The notes under the pieces were generated by a model. The model saw nothing but the letters and a program-made list of their open reading frames with translations. It did not search any database and was not told the DNA's origin. The position numbers and the translations under genes were made by a program. Positions 28,010 through 46,216 of a stretch of DNA of 64,000 bases are shown here, piece after piece. Every line of letters begins with the position of its first letter. Position 1 is the first letter of the stretch. The DNA is from Deltaproteobacteria bacterium (GTDB taxonomy: Bacteria > Desulfobacterota > Deferrimicrobia > Deferrimicrobiales > Deferrimicrobiaceae), in NCBI GenBank assembly GCA_016219515.1, contig JACRMU010000140.1, forward strand, positions 12,279 to 76,278, in the 5' to 3' direction.

Positions 28010-28711
28010 TCACTTGACGGCGATGAGTTCCACTTCGAAGACGATCGTCTCGTTCGGCCCGATGTCGCGGCCGGTTCCCCGCTCTCCATAGGCGAGCTGG
28101 GGAGGAATGAAGATCTGCCACTTCGAGCCCGTGGCCATGAGCTTCAATGCTTCGGTCATGCCGGGGATGACCCCTCCCTTGACCTTGAAGGCCGCGGGCT
28201 GCCCGGCATCGGTGCCGTCGAACTCGGTCCCGTCGATGAGGGTCCCTCGATAGTAGACCTCCACCGTATCGGCGTCCGTCGGCTTCCTGCCGTCACCCGC
28301 CTTGAGGACCTTGTACTGGAGCCCGCTCGGCAGGGCCACCACGCCTTCCTTCTTCTTGTTCTCTTCCAGGAAGGCATCCCCCTTCTTCTTGTTCTCCACT
28401 GCAGCAACCCGGTAGGCCTGCATCAGTTTCTGCCTCAGTTCGGATTGGTAGTCCCGCATGCTTTTACGGAGGTCCTTTTCGTCCACCAGGAGCTTTTTCC
28501 CCGAATGATCGTCCTGGAAGCCCTTCACCAGGAGGTCCAGGTCGACCTCGATCCCCTGTTTCTTGAAATTTTTCGACATGTCGACCCCGATGCCGTAGCT
28601 CACGATCTCCTTCTGCGTCTTGAGGGCCGGCGCCTCACCGGCGCTTGCCTGGCCGCACAGGAGCAGAACCCCAAGGATCCCGATCCATTTCCATATCCTC
28701 TCCGTTTTCAT
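28010..28711 (-). CDS. fkpA: Periplasmic FKBP-type peptidyl-prolyl cis-trans isomerase (FkpA-like: FKBP_N dimerisation + FKBP_C), 233 aa
   Basis: Signal peptide MKTERIWKWIGILGVLLLCGQASA. FKBP_C motifs GLQYKVLKAGDGRKPTDADTVEVYYRGTLIDGTEFD...IPGMTEALKLM...WQIFIPPQLAYGERG. Confidence 0.8.
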   Translation of the reverse strand: MKTERIWKWIGILGVLLLCGQASAGEAPALKTQKEIVSYGIGVDMSKNFKKQGIEVDLDLLVKGFQDDHSGKKLLVDEKDLRKSMRDYQSELRQKLMQAYRVAAVENKKKGDAFLEENKKKEGVVALPSGLQYKVLKAGDGRKPTDADTVEVYYRGTLIDGTEFDGTDAGQPAAFKVKGGVIPGMTEALKLMATGSKWQIFIPPQLAYGERGTGRDIGPNETIVFEVELIAVK

Positions 28712-28769
28712 CGTCTCTCCCTTTCGCATGGAATCGATTTGCCCGGCATCGGCCGTTGCGCGCCCCGGA

Positions 28770-29489
28770 TCACTTGATGGAGAGGAGCTCCACTTCGAGG
28801 ATCAGCGTCTCGTTCGACCCGATCTTGCGGCCCCCTCCCTGCTCTCCGTAGGCAAGATGGGGGGGGATGAAGAGCTGCCACCTGGAGCCCGTGGGCATGA
28901 GCTTCAACGCTTCCCTCCAGCCGGGGATCACGCCCGCGACGCTCAGCGTCGCGGGTTTGCCCCTGGCATAGGAACTGTCGAACTCCTTGCCGTCGATGAG
29001 GGTTCCGCGGTAGTTGCACTCCACGACGTCGGTGTCCGTCGGCTTCCTGCCGTCCCCCGCTTTGAGGATCTTGTATTGGAGCCCGCTCGGCAGGGCCACG
29101 ACGCCTTCCTTCGTCTTGTTCCCGGCCAGGAAGGCCTCCCCGGCTTTTTTGCTCTCTTCCGCCGACTTCTGCGGGGCCGGGGACTGCTTCAGTTTCTGCG
29201 CGGCCTGCTTCCGAACCATCTCGCTTTGGGCCGCATTCCTGATGGCCATGAGTTCCTGTTCGGTCAGGAGAAGCTTCCCGCCGGACAGCCCGTCCTTCAA
29301 TCCCCTGAGCAGGACCTCGACATCGACCTCGATTTCCTGCTGCCTCAGGACCTTCCCCGTGTCCGCGCCGATGGCGTAGCTTAACTTTTCCTTCGGGGTT
29401 TTCAATGCCGGTGCCTCTTCGGCGCCCGCCTGGGTCGTGAGAAGCGCCATCCCCAGGGTTCCGAGAATGGCCATCCGTTTCAGGACCAT
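28770..29489 (-). CDS. fkpA: Second periplasmic FkpA-like FKBP-type PPIase (tandem paralog), 239 aa
   Basis: Start taken at MVLKRMAILGTLGMALLTTQAGA (signal peptide). GLQYKILKAGDGRKPTDTDVVECNYRGTLIDGKEFD...IPGWREALKLM...WQLFIPPHLAYGEQG. About 60% identical to the downstream copy by eye. Confidence 0.8.
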   Translation of the reverse strand: MVLKRMAILGTLGMALLTTQAGAEEAPALKTPKEKLSYAIGADTGKVLRQQEIEVDVEVLLRGLKDGLSGGKLLLTEQELMAIRNAAQSEMVRKQAAQKLKQSPAPQKSAEESKKAGEAFLAGNKTKEGVVALPSGLQYKILKAGDGRKPTDTDVVECNYRGTLIDGKEFDSSYARGKPATLSVAGVIPGWREALKLMPTGSRWQLFIPPHLAYGEQGGGRKIGSNETLILEVELLSIK

Positions 29490-29652
29490 GAGCTCTCCTT
29501 TCCGATCGAGGATGCAGTCGTTGATACGAAACCTCGGGGCGGCCTGGGGCCGCCCCGAGGATAAGGAATGCAACCACCGTTCAGTGTAACCGTGAGTTTC
29601 CGCCGGCGCCAGGGGCCGGCGCCAGGGGTTGCCTGGCGCCGGCGGCCACGAC

Positions 29653-32600
29653 TTACGGAGTGGTCACGAACCTGGTATTCGACCACCCGGAATTGCCGAC
29701 CGCGTTGGTCGCCCGCACGCGGTAGTAGAAGTTGAATGCGCGCGACACGTTCTGGCTGAACGTCGTCACGTTGGCGCCGACGTTGTACGTTGTCGGAGCC
29801 GAGAAGTTCGCGAAAAGGGACCGCTGGACCTGGAAGCCGGTCTCGTTGTTGGCGTTGTCCGTCCAGTTCAGCGTGACGCTGTCCTGGAACAGGTTGCCTG
29901 GGATCCTGACCGCCGATCCCGTCAGGCCGGTAGGCGTCGCAGGCACACGGAAGTTCACCGTGACCGTGTTCGAGGGGAGCGAAGCGCCCGCCGCGTTCAC
30001 GGCCGTCACGTAGTACGCGTACGTGTTCCCGGCAATCCTGCCGCCGTTCGTGAAGGTTGTGACGTTCGGGCCCACCGCGGCGATCTGTGCGAACGCACCG
30101 CCGTTGATGGAGCGCCACACCGCGAAGCCCGTCTCGTTGTTGGAAGCGTCGGTCCAGTTCAACCGGATCTGCGTCGAGGAAAGGATCGTCGCAGCCAGGT
30201 TGGTGGGAGCGGCCGGCGTGGGCGGTATCGTCGTTATGGATGCGATGTTGGAGAACCCGGAGTCGGCGGTCATGGTGGGGAAGCCGACCGAGGGAGCCGG
30301 GTACGTGGCGGTGTCGCCGACCAGGTTGGAGGCGAACACACGGTAGTAGTACGTCGTGTTCGGCGCGACCGCGGTATCGCTGTAGATTGTCACGTTCGCT
30401 CCGACCGTAAACGTGTTCAATCCCGTCGTGAAACCGGCATCCGCCGACCGCTGGATGGTGAAGCCGGTTTCGTTCAGGGAGCCGTCCGTCCAGGCCAGAT
30501 TGACTCTCAGCGGGCTGCCGAGCAAGGTGGCGCCCAGGCCGGAAGGCGCGCTCGGCGGAACCGCGAACGCCACCGAGTGCATCATGTCCATCTCTTCATG
30601 GGCCAGGATGTGGCAATGCCACACGTACTCCCAGCCGAAGTTGACTTCGTGGTTGAGGATTTCGGTGATCCGATTCCCCTGCGGGTCGAACCATCCCGCG
30701 GGCGGCGGCTCGACCAGCGGGACGCCCGGGGGCAACGTCGGATCGATCAGCCGGACGCTGTTGGGCACATCGAACGGAAGCTGGGCGGGGGTGGGAATGA
30801 TCGGCCGCAGCGCGATGACCGTGTGCTCCAGCGGGTTGATCCGGAAGGTGTCCTTCCAGCCGAGCTCGTTGTCGTCGGGCGGCAGCATTGCTCCGTCCCA
30901 GCCGATCCGGTTGATGAGTTGCGCATTGAACAAGTGGGTGTGGATCGTGTGGGTGTCCACGCCGTTGTGGGTGATCTTCCAGATCTGGGTGTTGTTGTCC
31001 GACAGCCCGAGCAGAGAGCCGGACACCGAGCCCTTGATGATTTCGACGGGCGGGCTGGCATAGCCGTAGGGGATGAACTGCCCAAGCCGGGAATTCGTAC
31101 CCTGAAGCTCGAGCCCGAGCATGCCGCTCATCCGTCCGAACTGGGTGTCGTACACGCCTCCCATCTCGTCGTGCAGCGCCTTCGGCTCGAGCGGGAGCGT
31201 GACGGCGGGGAGAAAATTCCCCGCAGGGTCGATCGGCAAGAATGTCTTTGAGAAATCGATTTGCTGCACGTAGGCGAGCCAGGCAACGTTATCGCCCGGG
31301 AAGTTCGTCACGTTGTATGCGGAGTTGTATGCGGCCTGCGGGAAGACGATCGGATCTTGAGACACTTCGAAGACCCCCCTCTTCGTGGCCGTCTTGGCGA
31401 ACACCGACCGGAGGTTCGCAAGAGTGACGTCGGGCGTCGGAGTCGTCACGGCCGTTCCCACCCGGATCTGCATGACGGTGCGGGTGTTGGGACCGTAGCC
31501 CGGCTGCGGCGTGGGGGCGCCGCCCGCGGGGGTCTGATCCGGCGCGCCCGTGAAGTAGTCGTAGGTCGGGATGCCCGCCGGGAAGGCCGCGGGAGCATCG
31601 TTGTAGAGAATGAGCGTTTTTCCGGCGAAGGCGGAGAAGTCAACGACGACATCCGCCCGCTCCGCCGTTCCCAGGAGAAGCGAGTGATCGACGACGTTCC
31701 CGTAATTGAAGGTCGTCGGGTTCAGGTTCCAGGTGACGGGCTGGGCGGGGATCACGGCAGGCACCGGCAGGAAACCGCCTTCGGTGCCGACCTGGATCCA
31801 GTCCGGTCCTTTCGTCAACGGATCGGGAATGCCGCTGGGCCAGTCCGCCGGAATGCCCGTAGTCCCGGCAGCGGAGACCATCTTGACTTCCGTGCAGTCG
31901 CCGAGCGCCACCGGGTTCGCGCCGTCGCACAGCACGGCGCCGGTGGTTCCGAGCGTGGTGGGAGAATTCTTGTCGGCGGCCACATAGAACTGGAGGTTGA
32001 AGAAACGGTCATCGGCGGCGTTCAGGATGCGGAACCGGTAGGCCTTCGGTTCCACTTCCAGGTACGGGTATACGGTGCCGTTGACGACGGGCGTATCCAT
32101 GAACGCCTCGCCCGCCATGGAGGGGTTCGGCGTCCCGGGATTCATCGGAGGTTCCCAGGGTGCGGTGCAGGGACCGCCGATGCCGCAGTCGAAGTAGGGA
32201 TTCGGTACCGGGCCCTGCGCGATGAAGGTCGTAGGCGGCCAGAACCAGGGGCCGTAATGCCACCTGCCGAAGGGGTTCATGCCCGTCATGTCGTACGGAT
32301 TCTGGGCCGGCATGTAGACATGGGGGTACCAGAGGTCGCCGGTGACAGCGGCCGTGATCTTTCCGGTAGCAGGATCTCTCGGCCCGGTTCCCCAGTTCCA
32401 CGTGGGGTCCTCGTTTGCGATCGTCGAGGCGTCGACGAACGTCCGGTCCTGGATGACCAGTGGGATCCCGATATCGGGGAGGACCTTCAGGTTGGTAGGG
32501 TTGACGCCGGAGACGTTGGTGCCGTTGATCATGTCCTGCTCTACCTGGTCGGTCAGCACGTAGCCCGCGGCTTCGCCTGCGTAGACGTTGAGACGCGTGA

Positions 32601-33780
32601 TCCCCATCGCATGGTCGTGGTAGAACATCAACCGGGCGCTCTGCGCGTTGGTGTAGTAAAAGGTCAACGCACCCGGACCGGGATCCGGCATATCGGGAAC
32701 GTTCCGAGCGCTGACGCCCTTCGGATAGGGAGTGGATTCTCCGGCGGGGGTGACCCACTGGTGCGTCGTCCCGTCGCTGATCCAGACGGTGTTGTTGCCG
32801 TGGAGATGGACGGTGGCTCGATTCTGTTTGTACGGTTCACAGGGCATGCCAGGCGTGGGCATCATGGGATCGCAGTCCATGCCCATGGCGTCTTTCGGGC
32901 CCGGCCCGGCCCCCATGACCGTGGGATCCACCGGCAGGAAGAGGTCTCCGCCCGCGCCGGTGGGAAGCAGGTTGTGGAACTTGAGGCGAACCGGCTTGCC
33001 CGGCTGGCCCGGCACGCTCCCCATCGCAACGATGGCGGGCCCCAGGAAATGGGGGTTGTCCACGGCGATGGCCTGCGTGCCATTCGGCATCAGGATCGGA
33101 GTGCCATCGATATTGAACAGGGGAACGTGTTTGCTCACGCCGAAGTTGGCAGGCGTTTCCAGCTGCACGTAGCCCCGATGCTTTGTCGGGGGCAGGTCCG
33201 AATGCATTCTTTCGTTGAATTCGACAAGCGCGATTTCATAGTAGTCGGACGCCGGCGGGTTCGGCCCCGGGAAGCTGACCTGATCCGGAACGGCGACCGG
33301 GATATACTGTCCAAGCAGGTTGGCGCCGGTCGGCCCCAGCCCTGCGACCTTGTCCACGAATTTCCGGATGCCGCCCGTGAGGGGGCCGCCGATCGTCGCT
33401 TCGGCGGTGGCGCCGGCGCCGGTCGCATCCGTGATGTTGACGACGGGCGCGCTATACCCGGTGCCTCCGTTCGTAAGCGTTATGGCGGTGATCGCACCGG
33501 TGGCCGGGTCCACCGTCACTGCGGCGGTTGCGCCGGATCCGCTGCCGTAGAGATCCGCGATGGCGACGACGGGAGCGCTGTACCCGGCGCCCCCGCCCGT
33601 CAGCGTGACGATCGCCACGGAGCCGGTGGGGAGCGGGCTGTAGGCCCAGTTTGGGTACGGTCCGAAGTAATGCGGAACGCCGCCGGGGTCGAGTTGGGCC
33701 CGTGCCGGGCCGACCCCCCAGAAAACGGCGGCGAGCACCAATGTCAAATAGATGAAAATCGAATAGTTCCGCCTGTACAT
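29653..33780 (-). CDS. Giant secreted multicopper oxidase (about 1375 aa) with N-terminal G-rich YSAPVV repeats and three C-terminal fibronectin type-III domains; Geobacter OmpB/OmpC-like
   Basis: Start ATG 33780 after strong SD (AAAGGAGGATGAT). Signal peptide MYRRNYSIFIYLTLVLAAVFWGVGPARA. Copper-ligand motifs HLHGNNTVW (HxH), FYHDHAMGITRLNVYAG (HxH), WHCHILAHEEMDMM (HCHxxxHxxxxM, T1/T3). Three FN3-like repeats each containing (L)xWTDxxxNETGFxxxRS. Confidence 0.8.
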   Translation of the reverse strand: MYRRNYSIFIYLTLVLAAVFWGVGPARAQLDPGGVPHYFGPYPNWAYSPLPTGSVAIVTLTGGGAGYSAPVVAIADLYGSGSGATAAVTVDPATGAITAITLTNGGTGYSAPVVNITDATGAGATAEATIGGPLTGGIRKFVDKVAGLGPTGANLLGQYIPVAVPDQVSFPGPNPPASDYYEIALVEFNERMHSDLPPTKHRGYVQLETPANFGVSKHVPLFNIDGTPILMPNGTQAIAVDNPHFLGPAIVAMGSVPGQPGKPVRLKFHNLLPTGAGGDLFLPVDPTVMGAGPGPKDAMGMDCDPMMPTPGMPCEPYKQNRATVHLHGNNTVWISDGTTHQWVTPAGESTPYPKGVSARNVPDMPDPGPGALTFYYTNAQSARLMFYHDHAMGITRLNVYAGEAAGYVLTDQVEQDMINGTNVSGVNPTNLKVLPDIGIPLVIQDRTFVDASTIANEDPTWNWGTGPRDPATGKITAAVTGDLWYPHVYMPAQNPYDMTGMNPFGRWHYGPWFWPPTTFIAQGPVPNPYFDCGIGGPCTAPWEPPMNPGTPNPSMAGEAFMDTPVVNGTVYPYLEVEPKAYRFRILNAADDRFFNLQFYVAADKNSPTTLGTTGAVLCDGANPVALGDCTEVKMVSAAGTTGIPADWPSGIPDPLTKGPDWIQVGTEGGFLPVPAVIPAQPVTWNLNPTTFNYGNVVDHSLLLGTAERADVVVDFSAFAGKTLILYNDAPAAFPAGIPTYDYFTGAPDQTPAGGAPTPQPGYGPNTRTVMQIRVGTAVTTPTPDVTLANLRSVFAKTATKRGVFEVSQDPIVFPQAAYNSAYNVTNFPGDNVAWLAYVQQIDFSKTFLPIDPAGNFLPAVTLPLEPKALHDEMGGVYDTQFGRMSGMLGLELQGTNSRLGQFIPYGYASPPVEIIKGSVSGSLLGLSDNNTQIWKITHNGVDTHTIHTHLFNAQLINRIGWDGAMLPPDDNELGWKDTFRINPLEHTVIALRPIIPTPAQLPFDVPNSVRLIDPTLPPGVPLVEPPPAGWFDPQGNRITEILNHEVNFGWEYVWHCHILAHEEMDMMHSVAFAVPPSAPSGLGATLLGSPLRVNLAWTDGSLNETGFTIQRSADAGFTTGLNTFTVGANVTIYSDTAVAPNTTYYYRVFASNLVGDTATYPAPSVGFPTMTADSGFSNIASITTIPPTPAAPTNLAATILSSTQIRLNWTDASNNETGFAVWRSINGGAFAQIAAVGPNVTTFTNGGRIAGNTYAYYVTAVNAAGASLPSNTVTVNFRVPATPTGLTGSAVRIPGNLFQDSVTLNWTDNANNETGFQVQRSLFANFSAPTTYNVGANVTTFSQNVSRAFNFYYRVRATNAVGNSGWSNTRFVTTP

Positions 33781-33956
33781 ATCATCCTCCTTTCGTGTGT
33801 GTCCGGTGCGATGTTCCTTTTGGAGTTCCTTCCGACAATCCGCCGTGGCGTTCTTTCCTCGAAATTGTGTCGGTGTCTCTCCATGCGCCCTGTTGTCCAA
33901 GGACACCTCCTTTCTCTCGTTCTTTTCATGGCCGAAGCGGCCCTGTTCTCTTGGGT

Positions 33957-34379
33957 TCATACGTCAGCCTTGGAAAGGCCGTTGTTAACTGCGTCCCCTC
34001 GATCGATCAATCGTTGCAGCGCACTCTCCAGTTCCTCCGCTGAAAACGGTTTCGGGATGAAAGCATCGATGCCTGCCCGCCTCATCTCCTCCGCAAGATC
34101 CGCTTTCGCATAGGCGGTGATCAGGATCGTGACAGGGTGTTTCGACGCCTTCCGGGCCCGTCGAAGGAGGGAGATCCCGTTCTCTCCGGGGAGAAGGTAG
34201 TCGCTGATCACCGCGTCGTAGTCGCCCAGGTTCCCGGTCCGGCAGGCATCCTCGGCGCTCTCGAACGCTTTCACCTGGCACCCTCTTGCCCGAAGGAAGA
34301 GGGCCAGCGATTCGCGCAGCAGCGTGTCGTCCTCGATGATCGCAATCCTTGCCCCTGTCAATGTGCGAGATAAATTCAT
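33957..34379 (-). CDS. Single-domain CheY-like response regulator (receiver only), 140 aa
   Basis: ARIAIIEDDTLLRESLALFLRARGCQVKAFESAEDA...AVISDYLLPGENGISLL...ILITAY (phospho-acceptor Asp and conserved K/T positions). Sits 176 bp upstream of the multicopper oxidase gene on the same strand. Confidence 0.75.
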   Translation of the reverse strand: MNLSRTLTGARIAIIEDDTLLRESLALFLRARGCQVKAFESAEDACRTGNLGDYDAVISDYLLPGENGISLLRRARKASKHPVTILITAYAKADLAEEMRRAGIDAFIPKPFSAEELESALQRLIDRGDAVNNGLSKADV

Positions 34380-34411
34380 CGCGCCCTTTTATGCGGTTTG
34401 CTTTTCCATAC

Positions 34412-34426
34412 GCACGGGACGTGCCA
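34412..34426 (-). promoter_or_regulatory. Sigma-54 (RpoN) -24/-12 promoter upstream of the CheY-like regulator / multicopper oxidase / FkpA gene string
   Basis: Minus-strand sequence TGGCACGTCCCGTGC (consensus TGGCACG-N4-TTGC; only the -13/-12 TT is G/T, GC at -12 conserved). About 34 nt upstream of the ATG at 34379, leaving room for SD AAAAGGG. Immediately downstream of a sigma-54-dependent NtrC-type regulator gene. Confidence 0.6.
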
Positions 34427-34562
34427 ACAGGAAGGACCGGCGAATTCCTCTTTTTTTACGGCAAGAAAGATCAGAGGGGATGCGATTGCCGGCGAAGGAG
34501 AAGAAGGGGTTCTCGAAGAATTTTCACCCGGATCTGGAAGATATTCTATTTTCCCGGGATGG

Positions 34563-35951
34563 TCAGAGGCCGAGTTTTTTCCTGCGGTAGCGGAAGGTGT
34601 GATAGTTGATGTTCAGGAACTGCGCCGCCCGGGTCTCGTTGCCGCCGGCCAGCCGGAGCGCTTCTCCGAAGTAGTGCTTTTCGATCGATTCCTGCACCGA
34701 GGCGAGATCGACCCCTCCCGCCGTCAGCGGAGGCGCCGCGATCCCTCCCGCAAGCCCCGCCGGCCGCGCTCCGGGGCCGGATGGCCCCAGCCGGAGGTCG
34801 GCGGCCACGATCTCCTGCCCCTTGCCCGTAAGGACCGCGCGCTCCACGACGTTGCGCAGCTCCCTCACGTTCCCTTCCCACCCGTGTTCGACCAGCGCCT
34901 TTTCTGCCTCCGGCGAGAAGCCGGCGACGGCCCGGCCGAACTTCCGCGAGAACTCCACGAGGAAGTGGCGGGCGATTGGGAGGATGTCCTCGCGGCGCTC
35001 GGAGAGGGCGGGCACGGCGACCCGCACGACGGCAAGCCGGTAATAGAGGTCCCCGCGGAACGATCCCTTCGCGACGAGGGCATCCAGATCCTTGTTCGTG
35101 GCGGAGACGACCCGCGCGGCGGCGCGGAGCCGCCGCGTCCCCCCGACGCGATAGAACTCCCCGTCCTCCAGGAAGCGGAGGAGCTTCGCCTGGGCCTCCG
35201 CGCCCAGGTCCCCGACCTCGTCGAGGAAGAGCGTCCCGCCGGAGGCCTCCTCCACCAGGCCCTTCTTCCCGGCCTGGCTCGCCCCGGTGAAGGCGCCCTT
35301 CTCGTACCCGAAAAGCTCGCTTTCGATGAGTTGCTTCGGAATGGCGGCGCAGTTGACGCTGACCAGGGGGCCGCGGAAGTTGGGGCTCCGGTAGTGGATT
35401 GCCGCGGCGACAAGCTCCTTCCCCGTTCCCGTCTGCCCGAGGATGAGGACCGGGGTGTCGGGGCTCTTCGCGGCGGATTCGACGAACTCCATGACGTCGC
35501 GGATCGCATGGCTCTCTCCGACGAACAGGGGGACGTTCTCCCGCAGGCACCGCTCCTGCAGCTCGCGCACCTCCTTCTGGAGCCGGATCGTCTCCAGCGC
35601 GTTGCCGATGGTGGTCTCCAGAGTCTCCGTGTGCAGCGGCTTCACCACGTAGTCGAACGCGCCGCCCTTCATCGCCGAGACGACCGTGGAGACATCCTCG
35701 TACGCCGTGATGACGATGGCCAGCACCTCGGGCCGGAGGTCCTTGACCGCCCGGATCCCTTCGATCCCGCTCATCCCCGGAAGCCCGATGTCCATAAGGA
35801 TGAGGTCCGGCGGATCTTTCCCGACGGCCTCCACGGCGGATTCGGCGTCCGCGAAGGTCTCTATCCGGTATCCCGGCTCGAGGGCGATCCGTATCCCTTC
35901 CCTCACGCTTTCCTCGTCGTCCACGATGAAGATCCTGTAGGCGCCTATGAC
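34563..35951 (-). CDS. Sigma-54-dependent Fis-family (NtrC-type) response regulator: receiver + AAA+ sigma-54 activator + HTH, about 462 aa
   Basis: Receiver (YRIFIVDDEESVREG...LILMDIGLPGMSGIEG). AAA+ with GESHAIRDVME, Walker A GQTGTGKE, GAFTGA motif (EKGAFTGASQ), Walker B LFLDEVGDL, R-finger region. C-terminal HTH (RAAQFLNINYHTFRYRRKK). Exact start unclear: no in-frame ATG/GTG near VIGAYRIF, possibly a rare start, and the 5' end overlaps the kinase stop. Confidence 0.8.
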   Translation of the reverse strand, partial: VIGAYRIFIVDDEESVREGIRIALEPGYRIETFADAESAVEAVGKDPPDLILMDIGLPGMSGIEGIRAVKDLRPEVLAIVITAYEDVSTVVSAMKGGAFDYVVKPLHTETLETTIGNALETIRLQKEVRELQERCLRENVPLFVGESHAIRDVMEFVESAAKSPDTPVLILGQTGTGKELVAAAIHYRSPNFRGPLVSVNCAAIPKQLIESELFGYEKGAFTGASQAGKKGLVEEASGGTLFLDEVGDLGAEAQAKLLRFLEDGEFYRVGGTRRLRAAARVVSATNKDLDALVAKGSFRGDLYYRLAVVRVAVPALSERREDILPIARHFLVEFSRKFGRAVAGFSPEAEKALVEHGWEGNVRELRNVVERAVLTGKGQEIVAADLRLGPSGPGARPAGLAGGIAAPPLTAGGVDLASVQESIEKHYFGEALRLAGGNETRAAQFLNINYHTFRYRRKKLGL

Positions 35952-38602
35952 GGACTCCCTTCTTCCTCCAGCGGAAGCTCCACGCGGAATTCCGCGCCGC
36001 CCACTTCCGAGGCCCCGACGGACAGGCGGCCGCCGTGCTCGGAAACGATGCGGTGGCAGAAGGAAAGGCCGATCCCGTGACCTTCTTTTTTTGTCGTGAA
36101 GAATGGATCGAAGATCTTCTCCCGGAGATGCTCGGGGACTCCGGGTCCCGTATCGGCGATCCGGAGGATGGCCTGGCTTCCCTCCCGGGCCGTGCTCACG
36201 GTGAGGCGTTTCCGGGACCCGGCGGTTTCCATCGCCTGGAGGGAGTTCATGACGAGGTTGAGAAGGACCTGTTCCAGGAGGGAGAGGTCCGCGCGGCAGA
36301 AGAGCGGTTCCGGGGAGAGAACCTCGCGGAACTCGACGCCCCGCTTCCGGTTGGTGATCTCCGACAGGGAGAGCGCATCCCGGACGACCCGGTTGACGTC
36401 GATCCGGTCCATCCGCGGGGGGACGGGCTTGGAGAACCTCATGATCCGGTTGATGACCGAGGAGATCTTCTCCGAGGCGGCTTTCGCCTGCGAGACGACC
36501 GCCCGGATCTTTTCCTTCTCTTGCAAATCCATTCCCTCCGCGCGCTCGCAGAGGATGTCCAGGGTGGAGACGTTGATGTTGATCCCGGAGAGGGGGTTGC
36601 GGATCTCGTGGGCGATCCCGGCGGCAAGCTGCCCGATCGAGGCGAGCTTTTCCCGGACCGCGACGATCTGCTCGAGGTCCTTCACGCGGGTGATGTCGAC
36701 CGAGTCGACCAGGTGGGACGCGCCCCCCCGGAAGTTGACCGGACTGGCCTGGCAATGGAGCCAGCGCATCGCTTTGCCCCCGCTCTCCCCATCGGGAAGG
36801 AAAAACCGGATATCCGCGTCCTTCCGGATCCTTTCGGGGCGATCCATCGCGTTGCAGAGTTCCTCGAATTTCCGGGCGTCTTCCGGGTGGACCGTGCCGA
36901 TCTCACGGAACGGGAGCCCGTTGCGGATCCCCCGAAAGAGCTGCTCCTGCCGGGGGTTCCAAAAGACGATCCGCCCTTCCTGGACGATCAGGATGCCGAC
37001 GGACGAATTTTCCACCAGCGACCGGAACCGGTCCTCGCTTTCCTGGAGCGCATCCTGCGCCAGCAGACGGGCAAGCATGACGCCGGCGTTTTCGGCAACC
37101 CGCTCGATCTGCTCCAGGATGTGCGGCTGAAACATCTCCTTGCGCCGGTCGTTCAGTTGAAGCAGTCCGAACGTCGTGTCTCCGAAGCGCAGGGGGACCA
37201 AAGCGATCGATTCGTACCCCTCCCGGATGCACCGGCCGCGGGTGGCGATGTTCCTGATGGGCTCGTTCGCGGCGAGAAGATCGGAGGCGCTGTTGGTCCA
37301 GAACGTTCCGCGGGAGGTGAAGAACGGCAGGGACGGATCGCAGCGTCCCGCGATCACCGCACCGCACGTGCACTCGCAGAGCGGTTCTCCGTTGCCGCCT
37401 CCTTCGCCAGGAGCGCCCCGTTCCGCGGGGCACAGGCTCATTTCGGCCTGTACGAACTCCTCCGAGAAACCCCGGGCCTCGAAATAGGGATAATCGGCGC
37501 CGCTGCGGTAACGGATCCCGACCGCCTCGCACCCGAAGCGTTCTTTCAGGAACGAGGCGAGGGAAGACAGGAACTCCCGGACGCCGCCGATCGGGCCGGT
37601 GCGTTGAAGGAGATCCAGGATCAGCTCGCGCATCTCGGCCGCCCGGCGCCGCTCGGCAAGCTCCTGCTCCAGCCGCGCGTTCGCGGCCTGGAGCTCGGCG
37701 GTCCGCTCGGCCACCCGCGATTCCAGGCCGTCCCGGGCGGCGCGGAGCTCCTCTTCGCTCTTCTTCAGGTTCCGGAACAGCAGATCGTAGGGACGGACAA
37801 GGCCGGTCGCGATGATCGCCTTGTAGACCAGGTAGAACGAGATGACCTTGAAGTAGTGCCCGATCACGCTGTTGTAGACGAAGGCGTCCATGTAGACGGC
37901 GGCCGACATCTCCGCGGCGACCGAGAAGAGCACGGACAGCACCAGCAGGCCCAGCACTTCCCGGTCGAACTGCCTGCGAACCAGCCAAAGGGTACCGATG
38001 GAGAGGAGCTGTATCCCGGAGACGAGGTAGTCGCTCACGCTCTTGGCATGCGTCAGCCCCACCCCGGGGATGTAGTAGTCCGGGAATATCCCGTAGAGCA
38101 CCGAACCGACCAGTGCAAGAGCGATGGCGGAAAAGCCGGCAAGGAAGAGCAAGGGGCGAACCTTGCGGGAAACGAACAAGGGGGCCGCGAGGAGAGCGAA
38201 ACTCTGCAGGTACCGCGCGGCGAACCAGAGCTCGATCGAGTCGCTGTGGTGTTCCTGGGAAAAAACGCCGGCGAAGGAAACGCTGTGCAGGAAATCGATA
38301 AGTCCGACGAACAGGTATGCGATGCCGAGAAAGATGAAGTAGTGGTTGTCGATGAAGTTCCTTGCGTTCCACGTCAGCATGAAAATGCCGCAGGCGACGA
38401 CGACGCTGAACATCTCCGCGATGTCGTGCGCAAGGACGGGGCTCCGCCAGTATGTCGCATAGAGGACGGCAGGGACAAAAAAGACCGCGAGAGCGAGGGG
38501 GAGCCATTTCTCCCGCGGTGGGAAGCCTCCTCCCGTAAAGGATCCGGTCACACTCACGGTATTTCGACCCCCGTTCCGCCGGATTGCGGCCCTGAGAACC
38601 AC
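35945..38602 (-). CDS. Sensor histidine kinase with N-terminal polytopic membrane domain (MASE-like), PAS and GAF domains, HisKA, HATPase_c; 885 aa
   Basis: About 8 TM helices in the first about 270 aa, coiled-coil linker, GAF-like and PAS regions. H-box LAAGIAHEIRNPLSGININ, ATP lid DTGPGVPEHLREKIFDPFFTTKKEGHGIGL. Forms an operon with the NtrC-type regulator (overlapping). Confidence 0.8.
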   Translation of the reverse strand: MVLRAAIRRNGGRNTVSVTGSFTGGGFPPREKWLPLALAVFFVPAVLYATYWRSPVLAHDIAEMFSVVVACGIFMLTWNARNFIDNHYFIFLGIAYLFVGLIDFLHSVSFAGVFSQEHHSDSIELWFAARYLQSFALLAAPLFVSRKVRPLLFLAGFSAIALALVGSVLYGIFPDYYIPGVGLTHAKSVSDYLVSGIQLLSIGTLWLVRRQFDREVLGLLVLSVLFSVAAEMSAAVYMDAFVYNSVIGHYFKVISFYLVYKAIIATGLVRPYDLLFRNLKKSEEELRAARDGLESRVAERTAELQAANARLEQELAERRRAAEMRELILDLLQRTGPIGGVREFLSSLASFLKERFGCEAVGIRYRSGADYPYFEARGFSEEFVQAEMSLCPAERGAPGEGGGNGEPLCECTCGAVIAGRCDPSLPFFTSRGTFWTNSASDLLAANEPIRNIATRGRCIREGYESIALVPLRFGDTTFGLLQLNDRRKEMFQPHILEQIERVAENAGVMLARLLAQDALQESEDRFRSLVENSSVGILIVQEGRIVFWNPRQEQLFRGIRNGLPFREIGTVHPEDARKFEELCNAMDRPERIRKDADIRFFLPDGESGGKAMRWLHCQASPVNFRGGASHLVDSVDITRVKDLEQIVAVREKLASIGQLAAGIAHEIRNPLSGININVSTLDILCERAEGMDLQEKEKIRAVVSQAKAASEKISSVINRIMRFSKPVPPRMDRIDVNRVVRDALSLSEITNRKRGVEFREVLSPEPLFCRADLSLLEQVLLNLVMNSLQAMETAGSRKRLTVSTAREGSQAILRIADTGPGVPEHLREKIFDPFFTTKKEGHGIGLSFCHRIVSEHGGRLSVGASEVGGAEFRVELPLEEEGSPS

Positions 38603-38791
38603 ATTGTACGCCGTTAGATTGCGGGTTTAAGGAATTCGTTGTAACTTCATATTCGATTCAGGCATGCACATCGGCCCCGGCGTCCCGGGAAACGGGGACG
38701 CGGAAGCGCCAAATAAAACGTTTTCCGTTATCCTTGATTTTTGCTATAAAATCCTGCAATTGCCGGGTAAATTGAATTATCTACCAAATTA

Positions 38792-40060
38792 ATGAAGTAT
38801 CATATCCTGAATTCCGAATGTATTAGTAGGTGGGCCGCGCGGTTACCGGCCCGCGCAGGGTTCGACGGGGGGAAGAGGGTGGCGCAGGATTCGGGAATTT
38901 TCCGGGATATCGCTGTCCTGCCGGAACGCTTGGCGGGAACTTCCCCCGGCCGCGTCAGGAGAAGAGGCGCCCGGGAGATACCGCTTTTTCTCGCCTTTAC
39001 CGTTCTGTCGATCCTCTGCATGGCTGTCCCCTCCCTGGCGGCGGAGATCCCCCAATCCGTGAGCCTGTCGATCTGCTGCAACCTGTCTTCTCCGACCGGG
39101 GTTGCGGTGGATGCCGGCGGGAACGTCTACGTGACGGAATCGAGCGGCAACCGGCTTCTTGTCTACAACAAGTTCGGCTCCTTCCAGAGAGAGCTGAAGG
39201 GGCTGAGCAAGCCGACCGGGGTGGCCGTGGATCCCTGGGGGAGGATCTACGTCAGCAACACCGGCGCGAAGACGGTGGACGTCTATGACGTCAATTTGTC
39301 CCCTCTTTTTTCGCTGGGGCGGGGAGCGGTTTCTTTTCTGTTTCCCACCGCGGTGGCCGTGGATTCCGCGGGGTATGCCTTCGTGGCCGACAGCAAGGAC
39401 AACCGGATCAAGGTGTTCGACAGCGCCGGGTCTTTTCTATATTCCTTCGGCGGCAAGGGGAGCGGGGACGGGTATCTGAACTTTCCGGTATCGGTGGCGG
39501 TCAGCGAGAGCGCGGGCGAGGTGATCGTATCGGACCTTACGCCGACCCTGACGGGTTACCGCGGCGCGGGCGTCCAGGTATTTGATCGGACCGGGACGTT
39601 CAAGCGGCGTTTCGGCGGCTACGGTGAAGGGCAGGGCTTGTTCCTCCGTCCGATGGGCGTGGCGGTGGACGGGACCGGCAGGATCTATGTGGCCGATTCG
39701 TACCAGAACGTCGTCCAGGTGTTCGGCTCGAACGGCGCCTTCCTCCAAGGGGTGTTCGATTCGGCGCACCCGGTGCGGACGCCCTTGGGAATCGCCTATT
39801 GCCTGAAGACGGACCGGCTGTTCGTCGCGTCGCTGAACACGTCGAAGGTGGAAGTGTACGGCAACGCACCCCAGGGGGGCTCGGGGGCGGGCGGGGAGAC
39901 GTCGATGACCTTTGGCGGGTCGGGCGGCGGTGGCGGCTGCTCGGTGGTGGGCAATTCCCGGGACGGCGGAGCATCCGTCGACGGATTGCTTCTCCTGGTC
40001 GCCGCTCTGTGGTTCCGGAGGGTCGGGAAAAGGATCAAGACCGCCCGGGCATTTCGATGA
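38792..40060 (+). CDS. NHL-repeat (six-bladed beta-propeller) protein with signal peptide and an unusual Gly/Cys-rich + hydrophobic + basic C-terminal tail, about 375-422 aa
   Basis: Repeated NHL units (GVAVDAGGNVYVTESSGNRLLVYN, GVAVDPWGRIYVSNTGAKTVDVYD, AVAVDSAGYAFVADSKDNRIKVFD, VAVSESAGEVIVSD, GVAVDGTGRIYVADSYQNVVQVF). True start may be the TTG near 38933 (MAGTSPGRVRRRGAREIPLFLAFTVLSILCMAVPSLAAE); the listed ATG 38792 adds a low-complexity leader. Tail GGSGGGGGCSVVGNSRDGGASVDGLLLLVAALWFRRVGKRIK. Confidence 0.65.
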   Translation: MKYHILNSECISRWAARLPARAGFDGGKRVAQDSGIFRDIAVLPERLAGTSPGRVRRRGAREIPLFLAFTVLSILCMAVPSLAAEIPQSVSLSICCNLSSPTGVAVDAGGNVYVTESSGNRLLVYNKFGSFQRELKGLSKPTGVAVDPWGRIYVSNTGAKTVDVYDVNLSPLFSLGRGAVSFLFPTAVAVDSAGYAFVADSKDNRIKVFDSAGSFLYSFGGKGSGDGYLNFPVSVAVSESAGEVIVSDLTPTLTGYRGAGVQVFDRTGTFKRRFGGYGEGQGLFLRPMGVAVDGTGRIYVADSYQNVVQVFGSNGAFLQGVFDSAHPVRTPLGIAYCLKTDRLFVASLNTSKVEVYGNAPQGGSGAGGETSMTFGGSGGGGGCSVVGNSRDGGASVDGLLLLVAALWFRRVGKRIKTARAFR

Positions 40061-40110
40061 ATCGGCGGCCACGGACATTCCGATGATGCGGCGGGCGGCG
40101 GAGAGCTGAC

Positions 40111-43100
40111 ATGTCCAGGTGCTCCCTGAAGATCGCGGTCCTTTTCCTGCTGATCGCGTGCCTGGCCGGTTCCCACGTCCATTCGGGCAACAAGCCGTGG
40201 GATCCCCTGATCTCTCCCTGGATCAAGTCCTATGCGCCCGGGATGAAGACTTCCACGCAAACCATGAAGATCTATCCCCACATCGAACTGAACGATACGG
40301 AGTGCGTGTCCTGCCACTTCGTGAACGACGAGAATCCGGCCCTTCTCCCGGACTGGGCGTACCAGACGCCGGTGGACAACGACGACACGCCGTACAACAA
40401 CCTCTGCCGGCATTGCCACAACGACATCGAGGCGCCTTTTGTGAGGACGCACTCCAGCATCTCCATCGACAACAGCTACGGCAACTGGTCGATGGAGTGC
40501 CGTACCTGCCACGACCCGCACCAACCCGGCCAGCTCATCGGCTACGGGAGCGATGCCTACCTGGATACCGGGATCGTGGGTTCCGTGTCCGACAACGTTC
40601 TGAACACGTCGGGGATGGGGTGGGCCGACAACGTGTACGCGGGGTACCTGGTGGTTCCCAACACCGGCGATGTCGACCACGTCTACAAGATCGGCAGCAA
40701 CTCGGCGAACACCCTGTACGTCGAAGGCCCCATGGACCTGACGAAGGTGGCGGCGGGGAATACGTTTGCGGTGATCCTGGGGAAGAACGTCAAGAGCGCC
40801 GTCACCATTCCCGCGGGTGGAAGCAGCGCGGTGCGGTTTTTCCGTCGGACGGGGGCGAAGTCCTTCGCGGACGGGGACGGCACGTACGACGGGATCTGCG
40901 AAGTCTGCCATACGCAGACGACGCATTTCCGGAACAACGGCGGGGGCTCCGACCCGCTGCACACGAACCAGGACAACGTGCCGGGATCGAGATGCACGAC
41001 GTGCCATTCCCACGTGTACGGGTTCCGCCACGGGGGAGGTGGGGGGGCGGGATGCGGCACAGGATCCACCTGCCACGGCCTGCGGGGGTCGCATCCGACG
41101 CACGTCGGCGGAAGCGGGATGCAGCTTGCCCTTGCCTGTTCCGACTGCCATAACGCATCGAGCATTCCCCTGTTTGCGGACAACCAGACTCTGGCGAACA
41201 CCACGGCGTGCAACACCTGCCACAGCCCGGGTGGCACCTACAACGGGGTGAGCGACCTGAATATCGGGGCGAAGAACAACTGGTCGGCGAGGGTGTACGG
41301 CGCCGACAATCTGCTGAAATCGGGCAAGGAGAAATGGTGCGCCTCCTGCCACGACGAAACGCCCTCGGTGATCGGGGGGGTTAGCGCGCCGAACGTCGTC
41401 GGCAGCGAAAGCGGCTCGTACCCTTACGGGACCGGCTGGGGGTATTACAAGACCGGGCACGGGCTGCCGGCGGACCAGGCCTATGCTTCCAAGGGGGGAT
41501 TATTCCCGCCGTTGCTTGTCGGCGGCTCGCCACCCCGGCCGCTGGGCTGCGACACCTGTCACGACTTCACCACCCGGCACATCGACAACGTTGCCAGGAC
41601 GTACGGGACGCAGGGGGTCGCGCAGGGCGCCTACCGGCAGGGCTACCGGCTGAAGCGGGTCAACGGCCTGGAACCTTTGGTGATTCCGAGGCTGGCGAGC
41701 CAGAACAACGACAACAGTTACCTCCTGTGTGTCCAGTGCCACTATTCGAATGTCTTCTACAACTCGACCGACACCAATACGAACATGAGGAACGGGGGAA
41801 CCAACTACCATAGATACCATTTGAATTACAACAATAACTCCGCCTGGAAATCCGACTGGAGGTCGACCGGGAACAGCGCCATAAGCTGCACGCAGTGCCA
41901 CAACGTCCACGGCAGCACCCGCATGGCGATGGTCAACGACGGGTCGCTCGCAGGGACGCCGCCGGGGATCGTCATGTATTATTACAACACCACTCTTTCC
42001 TTCAGGGACTCGGGCGATCTGACTGCGCCTCCCATCCCCTTGGGCCTCCCGCTCGCATTGAGGGACGGCACCACATTTTACGGGAACACCGTCTATAACG
42101 CCGGCTGCACGGCCTCCTGCCACACATCGGCGAACCGGCTCGACCGCGCCTATGCGACGATGACCGGCCAGGTGTTCAACGTGGCGCCGACGCTTGCCTG
42201 GACGGGGGAAACGGGATACACCGCGGACGGCGTCAGTCCCGATTCCGCCGCTTCGGGGAGCCGGTTCACCTTCCGGGTCAACTATTCGGACAACAACAAC
42301 AACCTCCCGAGTTCCATCCGGGTGCTCCTCGACACGAACAACGACGGGTCTTTCGAGGAAGCTTACGCCATGGCCGCGGCGGATAACGTCGCCGGGAACA
42401 CATACCACGGCAGGATCTACACGAAGACCTTGACGATCACCAACATCGGCAGCAGCACCATGCGGTACAAGTTCGACGCCGCGGACAACGCCGCTCTCGC
42501 CGCCACCGGCCCGCCGACGAGCGAGAACACGCTCACGCTTCTGAACAACGCCCCCGTCCTCTCCTGGACCGGCGAGGCGAATTACGTGACGGACGGCGTG
42601 AACCCGAACGTCGGCGGCAGCGGGGCGACCTTCACCTTCCGGGTCAAGTACACGGATGCCGACGGGGATTGCCCCGACGGGAACGGCGTCAGCGTGGTGA
42701 TCAGCGGGACGACGTACGCGCTCGATCCAGAAGCGGGAGCTTGCGGCACGGGCAGGATCTACTCGAAGGCCGTCCCGATCGTCGCGGCGGGGGACTATAC
42801 TTACCGGTTCACGGCGACGGATGCGGGCGGCAGCGCGGCGACGGGGGATCCCGTGTCGAACCATACCGTGACGGTGCTCTCCTCGGCGAACACCCCTCCC
42901 GTCCTCGACTGGGTGTCCGAAGGGTGCCGGACGGACGGGGTCAAGCCGGCGCTGGGCTTAACGAACGGCGATTTCGAGTTCAAGGTGAATTACACGGACA
43001 TCGGCAACCAGTGCCCGGCGTCGGGGAGCGCGAACATCCAGGTGTGGATCGACCTGGACGACAGCGGGACCTACGAGCCGGGAGAACGGTTCAACCTGAC

Positions 43101-44679: not shown

Positions 44680-44714
44680 CCTTCCCCATCGCCGGGATCG
44701 TGTAGAATCGGGGA

Positions 44715-45236
44715 ATGGCCGATTCGATTCCGATCCTGGTCAGCGCCTGCCTGCTCGGGAAGAACGTCCGCTTCGACGGCGGGCACAAGCGGGATCCGTT
44801 TCTCCTGGAAACCTTTGGAACCTTCGTCCGGTGGATTCCCGTATGCCCGGAGGTCGGGTGCGGGCTTTCCACTCCCCGGGAGCCGATGTGCCTTGCCGGA
44901 GACCCGGACGCACCCCGCCTGGTCGGGGTGGGGAGCGGGACCGATCACACGGAACGGATGATGCGGTGGGCGAAGGTCCGGCTCCGGGAGTTGGAATCGA
45001 TCGGTCTGTGCGGCTACATCTGCAAGAAGAATTCGCCGAGCTGTTCGGGGATCGGGCGGATCGACGTCGTCGGCGATTCGGGAGCCGCGGCGGGTCCCGG
45101 CTCCGGAATATTCACGAAGGCGTTCGTGGAGCGTTTCCCCCACGTGCCGGTGGAGGAGGAGGGACGTCTCAGGGACCCGGTCGTGAGGGAAACGTTCCTG
45201 GAGAAGGTTTTCGCGTTATCGTCACGTTCAGCATGA
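44715..45236 (+). CDS. DUF523 family protein (putative Fe-S thiouracil-desulfidase-like), 173 aa
   Basis: N-terminus IPILVSACLLGKNVRFDGGHKRD and Cys-rich core (WIPVCPEVGCGL, CGYICKKNSPSCSG) characteristic of DUF523. The 3' end overlaps the convergent downstream gene, so the C-terminus is uncertain. Confidence 0.55.
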   Translation: MADSIPILVSACLLGKNVRFDGGHKRDPFLLETFGTFVRWIPVCPEVGCGLSTPREPMCLAGDPDAPRLVGVGSGTDHTERMMRWAKVRLRELESIGLCGYICKKNSPSCSGIGRIDVVGDSGAAAGPGSGIFTKAFVERFPHVPVEEEGRLRDPVVRETFLEKVFALSSRSA

Positions 45237-46179
45237 GGTCCGGCGTGAAGGCGGGCTTGATGTTTTCCGTAATGGAGAATTCGTAGATGTACCTGTCGGA
45301 AGCGTACCTGTAGCCGAGGGAGGCGAGCGCTGGCCTTTTCTTCAGGGAAGGAAAGGTCAATCCGTCTTGTGGAAGCGGGGAGTCCTGGATGAAATATTGC
45401 CCCACGACGCTGCTGCGCGCCGATAGCGCGGCCTCGAGGGCCAGCGCCCCGTAGCGGTAATCGTCGACCGGGAGCCGGACATAGCCGCGGATGTCTCCCG
45501 CGAAGACCTTGCCTATATTTGCGTGTACCCCGATCCTTTCGCCGAATTTCCCGTCGACCAGAAGCGCGATCCTCTTGTCCGGGCTCCCGTTCCCGTACCC
45601 CTTCCTTGCGCTGCCCGTGGGAAATTCCAGGTCCGCCGCCAGGGCCGCGGCGAATCCGCGGGCGGAGAAGAGGGACCGCTTCACGTGCCCCCTGACATCC
45701 CCCAACCCGATCCGGCCGCTCTCTCCCCGGAGGACCGTCTGTCCGTCTTTCTTCACCTCGAAGAGAAAACGGTTCGCCGACTCCCCGGCTTTCCCCGAAT
45801 CGATTCCGAACGCACGGTGGAACTTGTCGATCCCTTTATCGAGGAAGCCGCTGCCGAACGATCGAAAGGGGATGTCGACGCCCAGCTCGAAGATACCGGA
45901 TACGATTTTCCTGTATCTCAGTTCCAGCTCGGTCACTTCCGTGTCGATGCGGAAGTCGTACCCGTTGTCCGATTCGATGAAATCCACGCTCGAATGCGTC
46001 AGGCCGAGCGACAGGAAGTTCCGGTAGGTCGCGGGTTCCGGGGACGGGGCGTCGAGGACGGCCGCCAGCGGGAAGGAATTTTTCACGTGGAGCGGACCGT
46101 CCAAAGCATGCGAGACGGCTGCGGAGAAAAACCATGCCAGGCCGAAGACCGCCGCGACGGCCGCGCGACTGGTTTTCAT
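45169..46179 (-). CDS. Hypothetical secreted/outer-membrane protein (DUF3187-like?), about 336 aa
   Basis: Signal peptide MKTSRAAVAAVFGLAWFFSAAVSHA. Beta-rich composition with alternating aromatic/hydrophobic pattern. Last gene of the dctPQM-iorAB-paaK string. No recognisable catalytic motif. Confidence 0.45.
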   Translation of the reverse strand: MKTSRAAVAAVFGLAWFFSAAVSHALDGPLHVKNSFPLAAVLDAPSPEPATYRNFLSLGLTHSSVDFIESDNGYDFRIDTEVTELELRYRKIVSGIFELGVDIPFRSFGSGFLDKGIDKFHRAFGIDSGKAGESANRFLFEVKKDGQTVLRGESGRIGLGDVRGHVKRSLFSARGFAAALAADLEFPTGSARKGYGNGSPDKRIALLVDGKFGERIGVHANIGKVFAGDIRGYVRLPVDDYRYGALALEAALSARSSVVGQYFIQDSPLPQDGLTFPSLKKRPALASLGYRYASDRYIYEFSITENIKPAFTPDLMLNVTITRKPSPGTFPSRPGP

Positions 46180-46216
46180 CGGGATCCGATAACTTTTCAA
46201 CAATTAATTTCCGGCT

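Follow-up and report, generated by a model that had tools for sequence, protein, structure and literature searches.

A predicted sigma-54 two-component cassette with exchangeable cargo upstream of a giant mof/ompB-like multicopper oxidase gene

We analysed 64,000 nucleotides of a groundwater metagenome-assembled genome (MAG) of a Deltaproteobacteria bacterium (GCA_016219515.1, contig JACRMU010000140.1, positions 12,279 to 76,278; hereafter the window), in which a minus-strand locus at 28010–38602 places a two-component system before the gene of a giant multicopper oxidase. Judged from its sequence, this is a mof/ompB-like oxidase locus headed by a conserved sigma-54 two-component cassette whose cargo is exchangeable, and its best explanation, to which we assign a probability of roughly 70%, is a predicted sigma-54-controlled expression cassette for an extracytoplasmic copper oxidase. 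The open reading frame (ORF) listing and Pfam matches bear out the gene content and coordinates given earlier by a model that had only the letters of the window (the original prediction): six genes lie on the minus strand in the order sensor kinase, NtrC-type activator, stand-alone receiver, oxidase and two FKBP-type isomerases.

The promoter lies between the activator and receiver genes. The −24/−12 element TGGCACGTCCCGTGC at 34426–34412 (minus strand), recognized by its consensus match and by its conservation in related loci, has its GG at 34425–34424 and its GC at 34413–34412, 32 nt before the receiver ATG, and the predicted transcription start would fall near 34400, 21 nt before that ATG. 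Statistics from the window alone are not significant (2 matches to the consensus with at most one mismatch versus 2.36 expected), and no other GG-N10-GC on either strand of 17001–48000, the 31 kb around the locus, agrees with the consensus at 10 or more of 12 positions. The significance of the match comes instead from its position and conservation. Among related loci gathered from two sides, by oxidase searches and by kinase searches, GGCAY-N6-TGC stands upstream of the receiver gene in all 15 with a kinase/activator/receiver arrangement (window, L081/L082, L083, L084, L103, L124, L126, L153 and L164–L170), against a background frequency, taken from 5.2 Mb of DNA, of 0.0088 per 200 nt on each strand. 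GGCAY and TGC are invariant, whereas the four to six bases between them vary from locus to locus and the intergenic DNA on either side has diverged. The element placed at these coordinates by the original prediction is, on this conservation, very likely real, and it very probably turns on the receiver and giant oxidase genes. No second sigma-54 promoter was found before the oxidase or in the 189-nt spacer of the window between the kinase gene and the divergent gene of an NHL-repeat protein; elsewhere, a second sigma-54-like element between receiver and oxidase occurs only in L124:7606-7621 (GGGCATAAGCATTGCT) and L126:8132-8147 (GGGCTTGATCATTGCA).

Further upstream, two imperfect GAA-N4/5-TTC palindromes (34546–34537 and 34525–34515), 21.5 bp apart and about 120 and 141 nt from the predicted start, are still recognizable across loci whose other intergenic sequence has diverged. 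By inspection, these blocks are candidate activator sites, positioned as expected. An A-rich tract between them and the promoter (34460–34443) may be a bend or integration host factor (IHF) region, and AT-rich tracts occupy the same position in L083, L084, L103 and L124.

The cassette encodes the proteins expected to work such a promoter. The sensor histidine kinase (35945–38602, 885 aa) has MASE3 (residues 56–271, E 7.5e-63), partial GAF (457–510), PAS (525–627, PAS_8), HisKA (5e-10) and HATPase_c (8e-24) matches in Pfam; the predicted MASE, PAS and GAF domains are present, but in the order MASE3-GAF-PAS rather than MASE-PAS-GAF. Its best NCBIfam match is MASE3_PAS_HK, under the model cut-off, and its orthologues form about 100 clusters at 50% identity or more. 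The NtrC-family enhancer-binding response regulator (34563–35948, ~461 aa, start uncertain) consists of REC, Sigma54_activat (E 1e-63), AAA_lid_14 and HTH_8 domains and carries both the GAFTGA loop (YEKGAFTGAS) and a Walker A motif (GQTGTGKE). The two genes overlap as ATAG, with the activator ATA at 35948–35946 and the kinase stop TAG at 35947–35945, and are thus in an operon-like arrangement. The CheY-like receiver (33957–34379, 140 aa), the first gene of the predicted sigma-54 unit, matches Response_reg over residues 12–121 (E 1.5e-22) and retains a complete set of phosphorylation residues: the acidic pocket EDD, the acceptor Asp in VISDYLLPG, Thr in LITAY and Lys in IPKPF. It directly follows the promoter in all loci with this module, at 43–87% identity.

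The supported extent of the unit is shorter than had been proposed. A scan of the coding strand found no terminator in the 176-nt spacer between receiver and oxidase, only a small GC hairpin without a T-run (GGCCGCTTCGGCC, 33930–33942), which is kept with a loop change in L081 and is absent in L083. The 163-nt spacer from the oxidase stop to the first isomerase gene (fkpA2), in contrast, holds two long GC stems, and the RNA fold of 29486–29660 reaches −94.8 kcal/mol (z −5.8), a value equalled by 0 of 200 shuffles. The first stem-loop lies directly past the oxidase stop codon (29600–29648), and the second (29532–29560; 13-bp stem with 12 GC pairs, loop of 3) is terminator-like, being followed by TTTCGT. 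Canonical intrinsic terminators occupy the same oxidase–fkpA junction in L081 (stem then ATTTTTT) and L084 (stem then TGTGTTTTTCTC). Because these structures precede fkpA, the predicted sigma-54 unit is supported for receiver and oxidase. The two fkpA genes, which start 163 nt and about 900 nt past the oxidase stop, would depend on read-through or on a promoter not recognized in the sequence; no conserved element could be recognized past the hairpin in the window, L081 or L084. The original prediction, in which the promoter drives receiver, oxidase and two FkpA chaperones, therefore holds for the first two genes but not for the FkpA pair behind its terminator-like hairpin.

Both isomerases have an N-terminal hydrophobic signal sequence, consistent with a periplasmic location. 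Copy 2 (28770–29489, 239 aa; ATG at 29489, Shine-Dalgarno sequence AAGGAG) matches FKBP_N (5e-25) and FKBP_C (1e-26), and its signal peptide ends AGA/EE; a longer ORF with a TTG start would extend through the hairpin. Copy 1 (28010–28729), with its probable start at the second Met (28711), matches both domains at 6e-27 and has a 92% identical orthologue of 233 aa in L081. Scores of 149 and 157 bits against NCBIfam PRK10902 (FkpA, cut-off 215) and of 159 and 157 against PRK11570 (FklB, cut-off 198) fall under the thresholds, so the proteins are best called FkpA/Mip-like. In 14 of 112 family loci, the oxidase is followed within 8 kb by an FkpA-like gene on its own strand, which is directly adjacent in 8. 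Elsewhere (L029, L031, L126, L129, L163 and others, Acidobacteriota among them), the oxidase is followed by a CusB-like gene with YHS and HMBD domains, a CusA-like gene and then the FkpA-like gene, an order suggesting that the isomerase travels with the oxidase despite intervening efflux genes.

The oxidase (29653–33780, 1375 aa from MYRRNY) is 100% identical to a deposited 1375-aa hypothetical protein of the MAG, and a Shine-Dalgarno AAGGAGG precedes its ATG at 33780. Its core (30565–33369) carries the copper motifs in order: H325/H327 (HxH), H388/H390 (HxH), H944/H947/H949 (HxxHxH) and H1055-C1056-H1057-H1061-M1066 (HCHxxxHxxxxM). The His and Cys ligands are identical in 159 homologues, with one alignment gap at H325, and the axial Met is kept in 152 and replaced by Phe in 7. 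Pfam assigns Cu-oxidase_2 (33.8 bits against a cut-off of 20.4) and fn3, and the nearest solved structures in the PDB are CotA chains (E 6e-32) and bilirubin oxidase (8e-18); an AlphaFold model of residues 29–1085 from a 30-sequence alignment was too poor to use (pLDDT 56, pTM 0.58). Three FN3-like domains (29656–30555), which had been foreseen, are each marked by the repeat motif W-T-D-x3-N-E-T-G-F (residues 1097, 1209 and 1306). The signal peptide (33697–33780) has a basic n-region with RR at the N-terminus. Twin-arginine translocation (Tat) was considered and rejected: the twin arginine is not conserved among 20 aligned homologues (MKRHK, MSKIK and MKKRN variants), which makes Sec export more likely.

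Between signal peptide and core lie two G-rich repeats (residues 52–135, 33376–33627) with the motif GG.GY.AP.V at residues 63 and 105. The repeats are real and have no match in Pfam, even at E 10; a confidently predicted all-beta model (pLDDT 88) has no match in the PDB. Described originally as an uncharacterized module, they nevertheless match predicted phage baseplate wedge, tail-fibre and tailspike proteins (PHROG E 1e-8; BFVD root-mean-square deviation 1.3–2.5 Å at 30–38% identity), and the model comparison identifies them as a putative display or adhesion module shared with phages. Many oxidase homologues, for example in Bacillota, have no phage-type repeats, and a paralogue type (P0005, P0014) has a different insert at this place.

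The OmpB-like nature of the oxidase is supported at family level. Residues 138–1367, FN3 domains included, are 46% identical over ~1230 residues to a Geobacter hydrogenophilus homologue (P0222), a likeness far beyond the cupredoxin fold, and identity to proteins of the Geomonas loci L061, L064 and L070 is 42–46% at 99% coverage. The oxidase thus belongs to the OmpB/OmpC/MofA kind of giant multicopper protein, in a subfamily apart from the Geomonas proteins in a neighbour-joining tree. This subfamily (50–87% identity) spans uncultured Deltaproteobacteria, Acidobacteriota, Planctomycetota, Bacillota isolates and many methanogenic and other archaea; among the matches listed, the closest relatives sit in other anaerobes, methanogens included. 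Archaeal members are found in L014, L017, L021–L026, L028, L030, L041, L042, L044, L060 and L069, and Bacillota isolates in L004 and L047. The family occurs at 47–64% identity in methanogens (a complete Methanosphaerula genome, Methanothrix, Methanoregula and Methanoperedens) and also in Bathyarchaeota and clostridia. All copper ligands are intact in the 14 archaeal sequences checked, so that a puzzling oxygen-reducing site is well conserved even in strict anaerobes; in the literature searched, we found no report on the giant oxidase family in methanogens. Neither the best 80 of 587 matches of a genome scan nor a search started from the Geomonas homologue included G. sulfurreducens OmpB. On another contig, the same MAG encodes a second family oxidase, P0005 (HZB63_04075, 1489 aa, 76% identity over 91% of the query), which differs by an N-terminal insert. 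The oxidase of the metagenomic locus L084 (76% identity in the best segment) likewise has a longer N-terminal region, and its genes are ordered NtrC-CheY-oxidase-FkpA followed by a type II secretion system (T2SS), which suggests that the secretion genes missing here may adjoin the paralogue P0005.

Across related genomes, the cassette of MASE3 kinase, NtrC-type activator, sigma-54 promoter and CheY-like receiver is constant and the genes behind it vary. The giant oxidase with two FkpA genes is found in the window and L081. Other loci carry oxidase, FkpA and T2SS (L084), oxidase and T2SS (L083, L124), oxidase, second oxidase, CusBA and FkpA (L126), T2SS alone without an oxidase (L164, L165), or a ~1700-aa SdrD_B/CarboxypepD_reg surface protein with two or three small multicopper oxidases (L167, L168, L169); nearby genes in L083 and L168–L170 encode a MofC-like cytochrome and SCO1. 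In L083, L084, L124, L164 and L165, a T2SS cluster comes directly after the oxidase or the receiver. With cargo so variable, the switch does not serve the giant oxidase alone, and the original prediction of a hard-wired, dedicated circuit does not survive; what the cargo variants have in common are copper oxidases that are secreted, helpers that supply copper or assist folding, and a machine for secretion. Conversely, of 110 oxidase-family loci with 2.5 kb or more of sequence upstream, only 5 have the NtrC/CheY pair (22 have a NarL-type regulator), and the NtrC-linked loci form three patches among others in the oxidase tree.

A close relative shows where the constant and variable parts meet. 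Comparison of L167:10001-22658 with window 28010–46203 gave identities of 94% for the kinase, 96.5% for the activator and 87% for the receiver, as well as 94% for the NHL protein and 91% for a multihaem cytochrome encoded beyond it, and the promoters match at 15 of 16 bases. After cheY, the giant oxidase and FkpA pair give way in L167 to two small multicopper oxidases and a 1776-aa SdrD_B/CarboxypepD_reg protein that is unrelated. The similarity stops within the 3′ end of cheY, which suggests that cargo is exchanged by recombination. In L083, L165, L168, L169 and L170, the cassette shares one chromosomal location, following def-fmt-rsmB-rpe and a TauE gene, although the cargo differs; the copy in the window has a different neighbourhood.

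Comparison with known systems places the locus among metal-transforming multicopper oxidases. OmpB and OmpC of Geobacter are linked genetically to Fe(III)/Mn(IV) oxide reduction (PMC5566968, PMC3495685), and the secretion of OmpB in G. sulfurreducens is reported to run through an atypical type II system (Mehta 2006, as cited in PMC5566968). Like the window oxidase, OmpB and OmpC (GSU1394, GSU2657) are giant (>1200 aa) multicopper proteins with FN3 domains and a signal peptide. The ompB cluster, with its MofC-like and SCO1 genes (GSU1397 and GSU1398) and T2SS route (PMC5566968), is matched in relatives of the window locus such as L083. The window oxidase differs in having two additional phage-type N-terminal repeats and in its subfamily, its nearest relatives (55–87%) being in uncultured Deltaproteobacteria, Acidobacteriota, Bacillota and methanogens; unlike the window, the Geomonas oxidase loci have no NtrC, CheY or FkpA neighbours. 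The published RpoN regulon of G. sulfurreducens (text and 7 supplements) does not list ompB. Among solved structures, CotA, bilirubin oxidase and phenoxazinone synthase are the best relatives and share the order of the four copper motifs, but the similarity is confined to three short stretches; the window oxidase, which is ~2.7 times longer, has its copper motifs set apart by large insertions and carries the FN3 and repeat modules in addition.

Both pairings seen in the window have precedents, so the claim that its context has not been described stands only in part. In the mofA-mofB-mofC genes of Leptothrix discophora, a large secreted multicopper oxidase, homologous to the present family (PMC5566968), is followed by an FKBP/Mip isomerase proposed to fold it (PMC5566968, PMC8218464). 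The window oxidase gene also precedes FKBP/Mip-type genes, and related cassette loci (L083, L168–L170) have a MofC-like cytochrome c/periplasmic-binding protein and an SCO1 chaperone. In contrast to mof, the window has two isomerase genes behind a terminator-like hairpin, no mofC or SCO1, a host that is a likely anaerobe and, directly upstream, a sigma-54 two-component cassette that is not part of the mof description. In Pseudomonas putida GB-1, MnxS1/MnxS2/MnxR exert two-component control over Mn-oxidizing multicopper oxidases, and MnxR is predicted to work with sigma-54 (PMC13631088, PMC8218464). Compared by description, this likeness is one of regulatory logic only (PMC13631088, PMC8218464): the Mnx kinases are described without PAS and HAMP and without MASE3, whereas the window kinase has MASE3 and PAS; the regulators are drawn as an operon separate from that of mnxG; and no stand-alone receiver is described. 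The mnxG operon also holds genes for an SCO-family protein and a SurA-type chaperone (PMC8218464). What we did not find described in the literature is the full cassette, with MASE3 kinase, NtrC activator, conserved sigma-54 promoter and leading receiver directly before OmpB/MofA-type genes.

We propose a mechanism that is standard for sigma-54 systems. The MASE3-GAF-PAS kinase would sense a membrane or cytoplasmic cue, for which oxygen or redox state and copper are the most plausible guesses, and would phosphorylate the NtrC-type activator, its presumed partner. The activator would bind the putative sites about 100–140 bp upstream of the promoter and, with ATP as energy source, convert sigma-54 RNA polymerase at the conserved GG-N10-GC to an open complex. 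The resulting transcript would first encode the single-domain receiver, which probably competes for phosphate from the same kinase and may thereby create feedback or a branch point, and then the 1375-aa oxidase of the OmpB/MofA kind. This oxidase would be exported unfolded through Sec, loaded with four coppers outside the cytoplasm and probably come to lie on the cell surface, where its FN3 domains and phage-type repeats would display it. The two FkpA-like isomerases are likely folding helpers, by analogy with MofB; their position behind the terminator-like hairpin implies expression at least partly uncoupled from the switch.

Several features of the locus weigh against such a switch or against parts of it. 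The −12 region is GTGC, not TTGC, and rpoN is absent from the 64-kb window. The activator codon aligned to the ATG of its orthologues is ATA, with no canonical start there, and the next canonical start would cut off the first strand of the receiver domain. Terminators between oxidase and fkpA weaken the case for isomerase co-transcription, and the window has no T2SS gene and, by tblastn with the MofC-like and SCO1 proteins of L169, no MofC or SCO1 homologue, so the argument for surface export is drawn from relatives only. The −24/−12 element, finally, is also a perfect GCACG-N3-CGTGC palindrome and could be an operator for a dimeric repressor or activator, with the operon read from a sigma-70 promoter. 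This view would fit the insignificance of the sigma-54 consensus within the window alone and the perfect 5-bp inverted repeat, identical in its spacer too, that the window shares with L081, L083, L103 and L167. The palindrome is broken, however, in L124, L126, L153, L164–L166 and L168–L170, where the 10-nt GG/GC spacing, GGCAY and TGC are invariant; a GAFTGA enhancer-binding protein is encoded immediately upstream in every locus, and the 183 nt of intergenic DNA before the receiver gene yielded no sigma-70-like pair of hexamers. Because its symmetry is lost in so many loci, a sigma-54 promoter is the better reading, and we reject the operator as very improbable. It is also unlikely, though far less so, that the two FkpA genes form an ordinary housekeeping locus for periplasmic chaperones, simply adjoining the oxidase, and not a dedicated maturation factor. 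Such a locus would be consistent with the terminator-like hairpins in the window, L081 and L084, with the general chaperone role of FkpA-type isomerases and with their absence within 8 kb in 98 of the 112 family loci with downstream sequence; the close relative L167, with its other cargo, also has no FkpA in the 8 kb after cheY. The linkage nevertheless recurs in separate branches of the oxidase tree, as a direct neighbour, before T2SS and after CusBA, and has precedents in mofA-mofB (PMC5566968, PMC8218464) and in the SurA-type gene of the mnxG operon (PMC8218464).

Two further alternatives retain the sigma-54 switch and concern its purpose. The cassette might belong to copper homeostasis, sensing copper stress and producing a periplasmic or surface cuprous oxidase, as CueO, PcoA or CopA, rather than serving metal-oxide respiration. 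CusB-type genes follow the family oxidase in 10 of 112 loci, with CusA-type genes too and often an FkpA gene at the end (L029, L031, L126, L129), and L126 reads NtrC-CheY-oxidase-oxidase2-CusB-CusA-FkpA; SCO1/SenC copper chaperones flank the cassette in L083, L168, L169 and L170, L166 has a gene for a small HMA protein immediately before the kinase, and copper enzymes and their export are the only theme common to all cargo variants. We nonetheless regard this purpose as improbable. The window operon contains no Cus, CopA-ATPase or copper chaperone gene, and the FN3 and phage-type display domains and the T2SS linkage point to a surface protein instead of a periplasmic detoxifier. To our knowledge, the sensor domain of known copper-sensing kinases (CusS, CopS) is periplasmic, whereas MASE3 lies largely within the membrane. 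Slightly better placed, yet still doubtful, is the view that the enzyme is an Mn(II)/Fe(II) oxidase or oxygen scavenger, with which a mostly anaerobic host would consume O2 with reduced metals and not reduce metal oxides. The complete trinuclear site and type 1 copper across 159 homologues, methanogens and clostridia included, would suit this role, as would the family's homology to MofA (PMC5566968), the MofC-like and SCO1 genes of related loci and a kinase whose PAS and GAF domains would fit a redox or O2 signal. Sequence, however, does not distinguish between substrates, and the only genetic evidence in the family implicates OmpB and OmpC in the reduction of Fe(III)/Mn(IV) oxides (PMC5566968, PMC3495685). 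The NHL protein and 1522-aa multihaem cytochrome encoded next to the cassette suit extracellular electron transfer, though in either electron direction.

These neighbours are divergent from the kinase gene. The NHL-repeat beta-propeller protein (38792–40060) is followed by the 1522-aa cytochrome (40111–44679; 11 CXXCH and 1 CXXXCH motifs) and, on the other strand, by a DUF3187 protein (45169–46203). Together, 38792–46203 looks like an extracellular electron-transfer cluster.

Geobacter requires OmpB-type proteins to reduce metal oxides, and those of the MofA type have been tied to manganese oxidation, but the substrate of these enzymes and the intact O2-reducing site in strict anaerobes remain a puzzle. 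A conserved sensor–activator–promoter cassette before such genes offers a concrete experimental handle on what switches the oxidases on, and its constancy groups the giant oxidase, small oxidases, ~1700-aa surface protein, T2SS, SCO1, MofC-like protein and FkpA into one putative functional system. More tentatively, the cassette may be the master switch of the whole extracellular copper-oxidase system in an anaerobic lineage, with cargo exchanged between close relatives by recombination at the receiver 3′ end. If so, the kinase cue, for example traces of oxygen or copper, would reveal the purpose of oxygen-dependent enzymes in anaerobes, methanogens included. We see the value of the analysis in a well-supported regulon prediction and not in a new mechanism: a useful lead rather than a revolutionary one.

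The secretion cargo shows a further trait of its own. The T2SS ATPase encoded after the cassette (L083:14350-16053, L164:10144-11847) carries an MshEN domain, a c-di-GMP-binding module, directly past the CheY-like gene, and its position next to that gene recalls the CheY-like control of pilus ATPases.

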